Source of the DNA: Naegleria gruberi
Lineage: Eukaryota
Reading direction: 5' to 3' (one strand)
Assembly: GCA_000004985.1 (NCBI GenBank)
Contig: GG739339.1
DNA: 1,714 nucleotides
Position numbers and translations under genes: made by a program. The notes beneath the pieces were generated by a model. That model made no database searches. It saw only the letters and a list, made by a program, of their open reading frames with translations, and was not told where the DNA came from. Numbering within the stretch: position 1 is the first letter of the stretch; each line of letters begins with the position of its first letter. Positions 8-1,714 of this stretch are shown here, piece by piece.

Positions 8-313
8 TCAACTGCCACCAATCTCTTCTAGTTTTCCAATGTTCAAAAGATACATGATGGAAATATATTCATTGTTATTAGTGGAATGTGTGGTCGTGTC
101 ATTGCTCTCTATTGAATTGAATGGTTGGTATTGAGTGTAAATCTGATCTACAGGCTGATATGCAATCACATTTTCTACATTATCGGTAGTTTTCTGAGAT
201 TGTTCATTATTTTCATTTCCAACATTCAATTCGGGTTGGTTATTCGAAACTTCTTCATGTGCTGGCTGAATTTTCAATGCATCCACCTTTTCAGAAGCTT
301 GCTCACTTGTTGT
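8..313 (-). CDS. In-frame continuation of the membrane-protein frame after the TAA at 314-316: 101 open codons, N/Q/T-rich and probably disordered (..YQPVDQIYTQYQPFNSIESNDTTTHSTNNNEY..), ending at TGA 10-8. The track's M at 286 is a GTG.
   Basis: Ends 610 and 286 are in the same frame (610-286 = 324). The only stop across 622..11 is TAA at 316-314. An open frame this long in AT-rich sequence is unlikely by chance, so this is likely current or former coding sequence of the same gene. Confidence 0.4.
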   Translation of the reverse strand, partial: TTSEQASEKVDALKIQPAHEEVSNNQPELNVGNENNEQSQKTTDNVENVIAYQPVDQIYTQYQPFNSIESNDTTTHSTNNNEYISIMYLLNIGKLEEIGGS

Positions 314-544
314 TTATTCAACTTGAATTTCTGGTGAATTATTTCCTTTTGAATTGGAAATTGGATGAACAGTTGCAGAGGAAGATGATTTAGTTCTAAT
401 TTCAGGTTTAGTTTCTTCTTTCGAAATGTGATTTCCCAAGTCAAAATCAAGATAACCCTCTCTGTAAACTAAAACCCCAGTGACTAAGAAAATGCAATAA
501 CAACACAAAGTGAACCCAATTGTCAATGCAGCAAAAGAATACAT
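314..544 (-). CDS. Small single-pass membrane protein, 76 aa from the first ATG (544-542) to TAA (316-314). It has an N-terminal transmembrane helix (YSFAALTIGFTLCCYCIFLVTGVLVY, about 464-541), then a charged Ser-rich tail.
   Basis: Track ORF 314..610 starts at TTG (610-608), not a real Met. The frame is open upstream to a TGA at 625-623, and the first ATG is at 544-542. A 26-residue hydrophobic segment is followed by REGYLDFD and KEETKPEIRTKSSSS. Same strand and orientation as the Cys-rich gene, about 100 nt downstream of its stop. Confidence 0.5.
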   Translation of the reverse strand: MYSFAALTIGFTLCCYCIFLVTGVLVYREGYLDFDLGNHISKEETKPEIRTKSSSSATVHPISNSKGNNSPEIQVE

Positions 545-646
545 GATTCCAAATTTGTAAGGTGTATATTCATTGGTTGTAGCAAATTCAGAGTATGATT
601 GACTGGCCAAAGAGCAAGATATTCATCCTCACAATAGTAATCTGAA

Positions 647-715
647 TTACAAGCCCGTAGCATTAGTTTGAGTTTCATATTTCATTGTAATTGTTGGTGT
701 CCAACATTCTCTACA
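647..715 (+). repeat. Copy A of a ~65-70 nt direct repeat (3' end of the Cys-rich CDS including the stop).
   Basis: Plus 661-710 (cattagtttgagtttcatatttcattgtaattgttggtgtccaacattct) against 1432-1480 (cattagttagactttcatattttattgtaactgttggattcatcattcc) is about 40/49 identical by hand alignment with one 1-nt indel. Confidence 0.7.
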
Positions 716-1003
716 TGTCACTGTACACAACCTGTCAGCCACACTATTACAACATCTACAACTATAAAAAGTACAACTTCCCTTATTGGAACAAGTTCTA
801 CAAGTATCACAACAAGTACTGCAACAATGATAACCATCACAACAACTTGAAGAGGAATTGATGACCAACATTTGTTGCATGATACTACAAGTATTTCCCC
901 CTCCACAACTACTGCAATAAGAGCAATCTTTGGTGCAACATTTTGATGACAAGACAGTAGTGGCTATCACTGTGCATGTTGTGGGCAGAAAGGTTTCTTT
1001 CAC
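647..1003 (-). CDS. Cysteine-rich low-complexity small protein (23 Cys in 118 aa; CC doublets, repeated TCCD units). Probably the terminal exon of a split gene: the track's M at 1003 is a GTG (Val), with no ATG at the 5' end of the frame. Stop TAA at 647-649.
   Basis: Longest open frame in the window (119 codons, open from 1018 down to 650). The stop and the last ~20 codons are conserved in a second copy at 1421-1490, and the substitutions between copies are conservative in this frame (I/V, M/I, T/S). The same ACA/TGT codon repeat gives Thr- and Val-rich ORFs in the other frames, which I consider artefacts. Confidence 0.55.
   Translation of the reverse strand: MKETFLPTTCTVIATTVLSSKCCTKDCSYCSSCGGGNTCSIMQQMLVINSSSSCCDGYHCCSTCCDTCRTCSNKGSCTFYSCRCCNSVADRLCTVTCRECWTPTITMKYETQTNATGL
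745..905. repeat. Codon-level low-complexity tract rich in ACA/AAC/CAA on plus (TGT/GTT/TTG on minus), with an internal tgttgtgat recurrence. It produces three overlapping ORFs in the track (Cys-rich, Thr-rich, Val-rich).
   Basis: Runs such as acaacaagtactgcaacaatgataaccatcacaacaact. Track ORFs 647..1003(-), 668..850(+) and 718..906(-) all derive from this tract. Confidence 0.6.
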
Positions 1004-1004
1004 C

Positions 1005-1133
1005 CTGATCTCAGCTGTTTAATAGCAGTTTTCTGTAAATTATAATACTATTTGAATGATTACGTACGATAGGTCTCCCTGATGAATTATGTTTCACATC
1101 ATTAATAAGATATTTAGGAAATATATTACTCAC
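1005..1133 (-). other. Putative spliceosomal intron (129 nt): donor GTGAGT at 1133-1128, acceptor cag at 1007-1005. Splicing joins gg|g and keeps the hydrophobic N-terminal exon in frame with the Cys-rich ORF (..IFFG-G-VKETFLPTTC..).
   Basis: The donor matches GTRAGT consensus. Only this acceptor (gatcag|G) of the AGs I checked preserves the frame. The polypyrimidine tract is weak. The better-looking tttacag acceptor (AG at 1034-1033) would instead give a 38-aa peptide ending KLLLNS* at 1011. Confidence 0.3.
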
Positions 1134-1205
1134 CCAAAGAATATTCCAATCCATATTGAAAACATGACAATCATTAAGGTTCCGACTGTTGTTAGCAAAC
1201 AGCAT
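1011..1205 (-). CDS. 64-aa ORF from the track (ATG start). It overlaps the proposed exon 1 and intron in a different frame, and is probably not a real protein.
   Basis: Its composition is the N/I/K-rich product typical of AT-rich non-coding or out-of-frame sequence. The overlapping +1 frame gives a coherent hydrophobic leader ending exactly at a GTGAGT donor. Listed because it has a genuine ATG. Confidence 0.15.
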   Translation of the reverse strand: MLFANNSRNLNDCHVFNMDWNILWVSNIFPKYLINDVKHNSSGRPIVRNHSNSIIIYRKLLLNS

Positions 1206-1228
1206 GCTATCATTGAAAACTGTCTCAT
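1134..1228 (-). CDS. Putative exon 1 of the Cys-rich gene. ATG at 1228-1226 in aaaatATG context. It encodes a hydrophobic signal-peptide or signal-anchor-like N-terminus (MRQFSMIACCLLTTVGTLMIVMFSIWIGIFFG), and the frame ends at a GTGAGT donor.
   Basis: Hand translation of the minus strand gives a 31-codon hydrophobic frame from ATG (plus cat at 1226-1228). Its TGA stop is part of a consensus GTGAGT donor (plus actcac 1128-1133). This frame (codon starts at 1 mod 3) is the same frame as the Cys-rich ORF beginning at 1003. Confidence 0.35.
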
Positions 1229-1320: not shown

Positions 1321-1360
1321 TGGTGGAGCATGTGTTGTTCTTTGGAAAAGTACACTACTG

Positions 1361-1380
1361 TTGTGAACTTTTGTGAACGG
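1361..1380. repeat. Tandem 8-mer TTGTGAAC tt TTGTGAAC gg (minus: GTTCACAA aa GTTCACAA). It lies 133-152 nt upstream of the minus-strand ATG at 1228. GTGAACGG recurs at 1663-1670.
   Basis: Direct reading of plus 1361-1380 (ttgtgaacttttgtgaacgg) and 1661-1670 (gggtgaacgg). Confidence 0.5.
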
Positions 1381-1420
1381 ACAATAAGAGTACAGAAAAA
1401 AGAGCACAAGAATACATGTA

Positions 1421-1490
1421 TTAAACTGTTTCATTAGTTAGACTTTCATATTTTATTGTAACTGTTGGATTCATCATTCCAAAATAATCA
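1421..1490 (+). repeat. Copy B of the same direct repeat, about 770 bp from copy A.
   Basis: Same alignment as above. One codon indel near the stop. Similarity decays at the B-copy acceptor site. Confidence 0.7.
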
Positions 1491-1495
1491 GATTG
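1421..1495 (-). CDS. Paralogous 3' coding end (QSDYFGMMNPTVTIKYESLTNETV*, stop TAA 1423-1421). It is preceded by a nematode-style acceptor ttttcccttgcag (AG at 1497-1496). Either the terminal exon of an upstream paralog or a truncated relic.
   Basis: Nucleotide and peptide similarity to the C-terminus and stop of the Cys-rich gene (WTPTITMKYETQTNATGL*). Its frame is open only back to a TAA at 1555-1553, with no ATG before the MM at 1477-1472. I could not find an upstream exon in the window with compatible phase. Confidence 0.35.
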   Translation of the reverse strand, partial: QSDYFGMMNPTVTIKYESLTNETV

Positions 1496-1714
1496 CTGCA
1501 AGGGAAAATTGTTGCCATTCTCTCTTCGGCTCTTAACAAAGACATCAATAACTTAAAAAAACAACTACAAATTTTTAAAAAATGGCGCTTCCATCTTGTT
1601 CCAGTTATTGTAAAAATAGAGAGAATCACCAACAATAACTTCATTATGAATCAACAGAAAGGGTGAACGGTTAATGTATAGCACATTGTCTCAATGTCTT
1701 GGGTAACATATCTA

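Follow-up and report, generated by a model that had tools for sequence, protein, structure and literature searches.

Putative two-intron structure with an 11-nt micro-exon joining a hydrophobic leader to a Cys-rich gene on a Naegleria gruberi contig

The window analysed in this work is a 1,714-nt stretch of Naegleria gruberi contig GG739339.1. The Cys-rich ORF of this window is probably part of a spliced gene in which a hydrophobic leader exon is joined via two short introns and an 11-nt micro-exon to the ORF, and the product would be a two-pass membrane protein. The link between the leader and the gene exceeds chance, as given by a profile match and a shuffle control. The exon structure is drawn from the window sequence and its comparison with homologues, and splicing of the gene is predicted on the same basis.

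The whole gene, including the leader and the Cys-rich ORF, is located on the minus strand. The start codon is ATG 1228-1226 (context gaaaatATGa), and an in-frame TAA (1243-1241) is located five codons 5' of it. The leader ORF opened by this ATG reads MRQFSMIACCLLTTVGTLMIVMFSIWIGIFFG and consists of 32 hydrophobic codons. A sequence-only reading that had proposed this ORF as a missed 5' exon gave its length as 31 codons, and the peptide written there also has 32 residues. The stop codon of the leader ORF (TGA 1132-1130) sits within GTGAGT (1133-1128), and the leader ORF and the Cys-rich ORF have a common reading frame. Both of these observations had been made in the sequence-only reading and were confirmed in the sequence. 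The mechanical ORF scan reported the Cys-rich ORF as GTG 1003..647. The frame of this ORF is open from TAA 1021-1019 and has no ATG near its 5' end, the first one occurring only deep inside it. GTG 1003 is an internal Val codon, as had been suggested, and the start codon of the Cys-rich gene is indeed supplied by the hydrophobic ORF (ATG 1228). The mechanical scan also contains the unrelated 64-aa ORF (1011..1205, minus strand) that had been pointed out earlier. No Pfam matches were identified for this 64-aa ORF, the upstream 56-aa ORF, and the overlapping plus-strand ORF, and the window exhibits no Rfam matches and no tRNA matches. Exact searches with three ORF products of the window returned no entries, and a 50-nt DNA pattern had no exact match in the metagenome, genome, and viral collections.

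The conceptual product was used to search for homologues. The closest relative is P0001, a protein of 343 aa that exhibits 48% identity to the window product in the repaired alignment. P0001 is encoded on L001, a 5.3-kb ENA metagenome contig that is considered eukaryotic because an actin-family gene adjoins P0001. The second closest relative is AKO1_010316 (P0024) of Acrasis kona with 40% identity to the window product. Both P0024 and the window product exhibit the subfamily signatures CCTK.CSYCSSC, SSSCCDGY.CCSTCC, CW.PT, and C..DY.C..YL. The GC content is 34% for the window, 35% for L001, and 38.5% for the A. kona locus, which favours a protist origin, probably in a heterolobosean-like amoeba or another AT-rich protist or fungus. 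The profile search added P0002 (JGI) and P0003, whose locus (L003) belongs to a metagenome of deadwood sequenced with PacBio HiFi (accession JBBCBH). A search for related loci among metagenome contigs returned none. The exhaustive profile search identified 434 family representatives at E <= 1e-3 (counted at 50% identity) and 77 at E <= 1e-30. The named members are from Syssomonas, the chytrid Terramyces, Gigaspora rosea, Pleurotus, many Mycena species, Roridomyces, and Acrasis kona. The earlier hint at a nematode or metazoan gene is not supported by these named relatives, which comprise Acrasis kona, Syssomonas, a chytrid, a glomeromycete, and basidiomycetes and include no animals. The members are annotated as 'hypothetical' or automatically as 'TNFR-Cys domain-containing', and none of them has a described function. 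All invariant Cys columns of the family ectodomain are present in the window product (E = 4e-32).

In P0002 (L002), P0003 (L003), and P0024 (L005), a single unbroken genomic ORF encodes both the leader and the Cys-rich domain, and the junctions read ..ALWLGLFFGLNYPEIVVHDTY..C, ..ITMGIFWGLNYPQIIINKYY..C, and ..AVWIGLFFGLNYSEIVVHETY..C, respectively. The leader is assigned to the Cys-rich gene because these homologues exhibit both as one ORF. Nearly all of 30 further members that were read exhibit the same order, in which a short stub and a hydrophobic helix with the ending ..LFFGLFFGLNYPEI precede the Cys-rich domain. The junction hallmark of the family is ...FFG-x-x-YPEI (..LFFGLNYPEI.. or near variants), which joins the leader to the Cys-rich domain. 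A. kona AKO1_010316, P0001, Mycena MIND_00117000, Gigaspora rosea A0A397VEZ2, and Pleurotus KAL4262164.1 all have an N-terminal helix with this ending, as does the window product; A0A397VEZ2 and KAL4262164.1 are the ones automatically named 'TNFR-Cys domain-containing protein'. In the window product, the helix ending ..FFG-x-x-YPEI before the first ectodomain Cys is exhibited only under the micro-exon model (IFFGETYPEI).

In L001, ATG 1700 opens a 32-codon leader ..VMFVVWIGVFFG (..VMFVVWIGVFFGETY) at about 165 nt 5' of the 'GTG start' of the homologue. The window and L001 leaders are thus both of 32 codons, with 12 of the 32 positions identical in the leader and 27 of 49 in leader and junction together. 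A six-frame search of the window (116 segments) was performed with a full-length profile of 80 members that contained neither the window product nor P0001, and the leader matches profile positions 46-73 with E = 6.5e-5. Shuffling the leader residues gave 68.4 +/- 3.3 bits with a maximum of 81.5, compared with 88.8 bits for the real leader, a score that was reached by 0 of 1000 shuffles. The continuity of leader and domain in the homologues and the profile match both support the earlier proposal that the Cys-rich gene has a missed 5' coding exon in the hydrophobic ORF.

Exon 1 (1228..1134) encodes M1 to F31 and the first two bases of Gly32, and its product consists of a short N-terminal stub followed by transmembrane helix 1 (TM1; ..VMFSIWIGIFFG). 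The predicted intron 1 (1133..1079) has 55 nt, reads GTGAGT...TTCATCAG with a CAG acceptor, interrupts the Gly32 codon in phase 2, and holds the apparent TGA stop of the leader. The predicted micro-exon 2 (1078..1068) consists of the 11 nt GGAGACCTATC and supplies the third base of Gly32, the codons of Glu-Thr-Tyr, and the first base of Pro36. The predicted intron 2 (1067..1015) has 53 nt, reads GTACGT...ATTAAACAG with a CAG acceptor, and interrupts the Pro codon of YPEI in phase 1. Exon 3 (1014..651) begins (P)EIRVKETFL..., encodes the Cys-rich ectodomain, and matches profile positions 78-213 (E = 4e-32), with the tblastn homology starting at 1012. Both introns are GT-AG introns with a frame-preserving join, both donors have G at +5 (GTGAGT and GTACGT), and both acceptors are CAG. 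The predicted junctions join 1134 to 1078 and 1068 to 1014 and remove 108 nt in total. The donor GG/GTGAGT (between 1134 and 1133) that the sequence-only reading had selected is the one used in this best model. The predicted product reads MRQFSMIACCLLTTVGTLMIVMFSIWIGIFFG-ETY-PEIRVKETFLPTTC.... and its N-terminal sequence is MRQFSMIACCLLTTVGTLMIVMFSIWIGIFFGETYPEIRVKETF.. The junction region (...WIGIFFGETYPEIRVKETFL) matches that of the closest homologue, and across the join the product (..WIGIFFGETYPEIRVKETFLPTTC..) is identical to L001 over GETYPEIRVKETFL.

The micro-exon is placed by family conservation. The acceptor 'ttaaacag' at 1015/1014 is in phase 1 and the donor GG/GTGAGT is in phase 2. 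A direct join of 1134 to 1014 therefore fails, since the differing phases produce GGC TGA and hence a stop, and the family motif ...FFG-x-x-YPEI resolves this conflict. In the six-frame search, the leader covers profile positions 46-73 and the ORF covers 78-213 (from EI, at 1012), and the gap between them (positions 74-77, 'lnYp') is what the micro-exon encodes. In L001, the corresponding join is TTT GGT GAA ACC TAT C/GTAAGT..(51 nt)..AAATAG/CC GAA ATT, which yields FFGETYPEI and then PEIRVKETFL. The window piece GGAGACCTATC/GTACGT is located at 1078..1062 with ..TTCATCAG directly 5' of it. The spliced GG+GGAGACCTATC/GTACGT matches GGTGAAACCTATC/GTAAGT of L001 at 16 of 19 bases (counted by eye), and the micro-exon restores GETYPEI as in L001. 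The DNA alignment of the junction region (MAFFT) left the micro-exon unplaced; it was located by a manual comparison with the L001 sequence and was then confirmed by profile scores.

Every GT..AG combination of one or two introns from ATG 1228 was enumerated, and the resulting 74 stop-free in-frame products were scored with a profile of 79 family members from which the window and P0001 had been left out. The micro-exon model ranks first with 88.8 bits, compared with 56.6 or 50.2 bits for the ORF alone. The second-ranked splicing is a variant micro-exon (1133..1075 and 1063..1015, giving GPIVPEI) that scores 82.6 bits, about 6 bits under the best. The same profile gives 97.1 bits for L001 with the GTAAGT donor (TATC/GTAAGT), for which the alternative donor TTTG/GTGAAA (77.4 bits) was dropped. 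Among the acceptors of the window, 'tttacag' (1033) was rejected because it gives a stop, and 'gggag' (1075) was rejected because it scores lower. A one-base error (an extra G at TTTGG/GTGAGT) had also been considered, since it would bring the 1015 acceptor into phase with the donor, and it was dropped since the micro-exon explains the phase without correction.

The sequence-only reading had proposed instead that a single 129-nt intron (1133..1005) joins GG/G to GTG AAA and produces a secreted Cys-rich precursor of about 150 aa with a cleavable leader. We consider this reading very unlikely. The join of 1134 to 1004 is in frame and stop-free, has a GTGAGT donor and a CAG acceptor, and is the top single-intron solution with 59.8 bits. 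However, this score is 29 bits under that of the micro-exon model, and the join removes ETYPEIR although YPEI is near-invariant in the family. Immediately 5' of 1004, the codons CT GAG ATC AGG specify (P)EIR as in L001; the codons for E, I, and R differ only synonymously (GAG/GAA, ATC/ATT, and AGG/AGA), and both sequences read (A/P)EIRVKETFL. The homology to P0002 and P0003 also begins at 1012 (tblastn, EIRVKETF). The conserved EIR and the tblastn start at 1012 therefore extend the coding sequence past 1004 up to the acceptor at 1015/1014, and the acceptor at 1005/1004 is not retained. Removal of 1133..1005 does produce a stop-free product of 150 aa as had been claimed, but a final product of this size is not supported, for the relatives have 250-550 aa and include a further transmembrane helix followed by a tail. 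The earlier observation that the 'tttacag' acceptor gives a 38-aa peptide is correct, and under the micro-exon model this decoy falls inside intron 2.

An exon of 11 nt is uncommonly small. Neither intron 1 nor the micro-exon has a counterpart in the homologue loci L001, L002, L003, L005 (A. kona), and L006 (Mycena). Because it is absent from all five homologue loci that were read, intron 1 looks like a lineage-specific gain that created the micro-exon. Intron 2 has the same codon and phase as the 51-nt intron of L001 (GTAAGT..AAATAG, 1806..1856). In Mycena indigotica MIND_00117000, the annotated exon 1 encodes residues 1-30 (..GLNYP), that is, the leader alone as in the window model, and the 59-nt intron after it sits one codon beyond the position of intron 2 in the window. 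A leader-only first exon is therefore already established in the family. The sizes of the two predicted introns (55 and 53 nt) fit those of the relatives, namely 51 nt in L001, 59 nt in Mycena, and 9-95 bp in A. kona, where intron-containing genes have been reported to contain one or two introns each (PMC11589745).

Most of the 27 Cys of the product lie in the ectodomain encoded by exon 3. This exon also encodes two N-glycosylation sequons, NSS and NAT, and the strand CWTPTITMKYETQTNAT. Cleavable signal peptides have a core of about 7-15 hydrophobic residues and small residues at -3 and -1, and are usually poorly conserved. The hydrophobic run of the leader has 27-29 residues in both the window and L001 and is conserved in sequence (W.G.FFG). 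By inspection, the residues before ETY (F at -3 and G at -1) are unlike a signal-peptidase site. The charges put the N-terminus inside, as the protein begins MR.. or MKNSTK.. and has basic residues following the second transmembrane helix (TM2). The AlphaFold model of P0024, which was built with a 23-sequence alignment, exhibits residues 142-183 as one long helix that runs into a beta-rich ectodomain, and TM2 as helix 347-380, with pLDDT of 86-98 for most of 150-340 and 75-87 over TM2. The long hydrophobic run, the conserved sequence, the poor -3/-1 site, the charges, and the helix model of P0024 together indicate that the leader is most likely an uncleaved signal-anchor (TM1) rather than a cleaved signal peptide. 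A removable leader, as implied by the term 'precursor' in the earlier proposal, is at odds with a conserved transmembrane helix of this length.

In the proposed mechanism, exon 1 would provide the ATG and TM1, and removal of the two GT-AG introns would join TM1 in frame to the Cys-rich coding sequence at 1014. The hydrophobic segment would direct the growing polypeptide to the ER and stay embedded in the membrane. The short N-terminus would then face the cytoplasm, and the Cys-rich, glycosylatable domain would be placed outside. The second helix (~544..464) would then bring the tail back into the cytoplasm.

The 3' half of the gene is interrupted. The juxtamembrane segment (650..603) contains the in-frame stops TAA 649-647, TGA 630-628, and TGA 625-623, and its neighbouring frame reads ACNSDYYCEDEYLALWPVNHT, which is homologous to TCNTDYTCVDNYLSLYQLNQT of P0001 (11 of 20 residues identical). 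The only GT..AG interval that bridges this first stop block in frame is 650..603 itself (48 nt, GTAATT..GGCCAG). The original frame resumes after this segment in a downstream exon (602..323) that encodes ..EFATTNEYTPYKFG, TM2, and the start of the cytoplasmic tail. TM2 is MYSFAALTIGFTLCCYCIFLVTGVLVY (~544..464) with a hydropathy peak of 2.21, and this region matches family profile positions 246-298 (E = 0.005) and aligns to NEYTPHKFGIMYTFAALTI of P0001. The gene may end thereafter at the in-frame TAA 316-314, or this stop may be bridged by one of several GT..AG intervals, such as the 57-nt candidate intron 322..266 (GTTGAA..AAAATTCAG). The bridging donors GTAATT and GTTGAA have no G at +5, unlike those of the two well-supported introns, and are weak. 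The tail ORF (265..8) is in the frame of the gene and is open for about 100 codons to TGA 10-8, and its YQPFN...NNEYIS resembles the C-terminus of P0001 (YQPFN...NNQYIS). Compared with the family order C[FY]YNP-YTxWKW-TM2, the window has YTPYKF and TM2 and lacks the C[FY]YNP motif, and comparison with P0001 reveals two frame breaks (~655 and ~595). Assembly indels, a very recent inactivation or truncation, and weak real introns are given roughly equal weight as the cause of these interruptions.

A further disrupted sequence is located upstream of the gene and outside it. This fragment (1468..1331, minus strand) reads PTVTIKYESLTNETV, a stop, ..SQQ, a second stop, and CTFPKNNT, and it is regarded as a decayed paralogue. 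It corresponds to residues 147-198 of the L001 protein (tblastn HSP, E = 0.001, two stops), and a DNA alignment is further evidence for it. A 37-nt direct repeat of 89% identity links 661-697 to 1432-1468. A decayed paralogue just upstream implies that duplicated copies have indeed turned over at this locus, and the locus may no longer make protein. With its interrupted 3' half, the copy in the window may be a decaying, recently damaged, or mis-assembled paralogue.

The main alternative to an intact gene is thus that the exon structure is real in evolution but that this copy was recently inactivated or truncated, so that the leader no longer serves a full-length functional protein. We regard this as possible, though not the likelier course. 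The decayed fragment immediately upstream agrees with it, as do the two frame breaks relative to both P0001 and the A. kona protein, the loss of CFYNP, the stops at 649, 630, and 625 together with TAA 316-314, and the weak donors of the sole bridging 'introns'. On the other hand, the 5' half is flawless with its start, two canonical introns, in-frame micro-exon, and all family cysteines, and the out-of-frame segment has kept its similarity to P0001. With some 100 codons of the tail still open, damage of any kind would be very recent. The frame breaks could also be assembly indels in this 1.7-kb sequence, and a short tail is tolerated in the family since the A. kona homologue stops a few residues past TM2.

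The fragment bears on the origin of the hydrophobic ORF as well. It ends with CTFPKNNT, which is similar to CFYNP, about 100 nt before the ORF, and in the family this motif precedes TM2, so the ORF could be taken for TM2 of the decayed upstream paralogue rather than the N-terminus of the downstream gene. This is highly improbable, given that the ORF contains WIGIFFG, a hallmark of TM1, and its profile match falls on the TM1 rather than the TM2 positions, that its ATG is at the same 32-codon distance as in L001, and that the ORF is separated from the fragment by several stops. AT-rich DNA does often hold short hydrophobic ORFs, and the leader could in principle be such a chance ORF, encoding an independent small hydrophobic peptide or acting as a uORF unrelated to the Cys-rich ORF. 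The sequence-specific similarity to the family N-terminus in the profile search and the shuffle control, and the position and length conserved in L001, leave this reading with next to no credibility.

The predicted product of the spliced gene is comparable to type II signal-anchor or two-pass membrane glycoproteins, with a short cytoplasmic N-terminus, TM1, a disulfide-rich extracellular loop, and TM2. The window and the relatives from A. kona, L001, Mycena, Gigaspora, and Pleurotus exhibit the same cysteine pattern (CC..C..C.., GY.CC..CC.TC.SC, and C.C.CC.S) followed by YTxxKF/W and then TM2. However, the window differs from these relatives in that it needs a micro-exon, which none of them has, lacks CFYNP, is frame-broken before TM2, and lacks the PPxY-type tail motif. 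Pfam DUF3592 (PF12158) is a domain of unknown function between two transmembrane helices. P0007 (33.5 bits) and P0031 (27.7 bits) score over its gathering threshold of 25.3 bits, and several other relatives match weakly. All of these matches lie before TM2, and the TM-domain-TM layout is common to both families. The window product and P0001 exhibit no match to DUF3592 at E <= 1. The link to DUF3592 therefore applies via the family only, since relatives pass the threshold and the window product does not, and the family differs from DUF3592 by an extensive Cys-rich insertion. No function is assigned to DUF3592 in the papers found. The ectodomain of the family is confidently predicted, and no solved structures resembling it were identified. 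The beta subunits of BK channels are a topological analogue only; the Foldseek match to Slo1 beta4 is weak (probability ~0.9, E ~0.01-0.07), with a TM-score of up to 0.45 when normalised to target length.

The findings in this work amount to an ordinary gene-model correction and leave current views of splicing and protein targeting unchanged. Prokaryote-style ORF calls on a eukaryotic contig split the gene into pieces and miss its start codon and membrane anchor, and a good donor paired with an arbitrary in-frame acceptor can yield a plausible but wrong product. Family conservation placed an 11-nt micro-exon that is invisible to ORF scans and to most gene finders. Only two details of the gene are unusual, the predicted micro-exon and the interrupted 3' half, and it is otherwise a normal spliced eukaryotic gene. 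A more far-reaching interpretation, which we hold to be unlikely and put forward only tentatively, is that the copy is functional and that introns have turned over very recently in this heterolobosean-like protist. If this were true, a new 55-nt intron would have arisen 11 nt 5' of a conserved intron of greater age, producing one of the smallest coding exons possible, and the frameshifted segment 650..603 would have been rescued by being spliced out ('intronisation'). The gene in the window is a member of a family of protist and fungal proteins that is uncharacterised though widespread.

The gene has a decayed paralogue, a fragment of which is located upstream of it on the minus strand (window 1331-1468) and reads PTVTIKYESLTNETV, a stop, ...SQQ, a second stop and CTFPKNNT. 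The fragment shares a 37-nt repeat with 661-697 at 89% identity. Because the fragment contains two stops and no Cys-rich part is found upstream of it, the sequence suggests that the locus underwent tandem duplication and decay. A 56-aa ORF is located farther upstream on the same strand (window 1474-1644), and its N-terminal start, MKLLLVILSIFTITG, is signal-peptide-like. The strong acceptor-like sequence ttttcccttgcag, which ends at 1496, is a short distance ahead of the paralogue fragment on the minus strand. The Pfam search of the 56-aa ORF returned zero matches. This region may represent either a further small gene with introns or a piece of the decayed copy.

The 3' region of the gene is also disrupted on the minus strand, at 590-660 and at 314-316, when it is compared with the closest homologue (P0001) and the Acrasis kona protein (P0024). 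Two compensating frame changes relative to both proteins were identified in 590-660, and one of them falls on the three consecutive Gs of ACGGGC. The window copy has lost the CFYNP motif. An in-frame TAA is present at 314-316, and about 100 open codons that are similar to the P0001 C-terminus lie beyond it. These disruptions could have originated from an assembly error, from very recent pseudogenisation, or from two weak introns, one 48 nt and the other 57 nt long.

The model of the Acrasis kona homologue (AlphaFold, m8d871ea10375) is of high confidence, with pLDDT mostly 86-98 for the ectodomain and both transmembrane helices. The search of solved structures with this model returned zero matches at E <= 0.001. 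In topology, the model resembles BK-channel beta subunits and PAC/TMEM206 only weakly. Many members of the family (e.g., P0009, P0014, P0025, P0030, P0035, and P0038) have C-termini that close with PPxY-type motifs (PPPPYNEIY, APPTYEE, PPPPYQ, PPPYKG, and LPPYSK), whereas the window copy and P0001 lack such a motif. PPxY-type motifs are typically bound by WW domains of Nedd4-type ubiquitin ligases.

P0001 is flanked in its metagenome contig (L001) by two genes (31-1419 and 3184-4356). The first encodes a multi-pass membrane protein whose C-terminal region is RGS-like, and the second encodes a divergent member of the actin family. Both neighbour ORFs are uninterrupted, which is consistent with a source protist that has an intron-poor genome. 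The annotated exon 1 of Mycena indigotica MIND_00117000 (L006 501-1698) consists of the leader alone (residues 1-30, ..GLNYP), followed by a 59-nt phase 1 intron inside the Glu codon. This intron sits one codon from the intron common to the window and L001, an offset that could have arisen if the intron slid or if a proto-splice site gained an intron independently.
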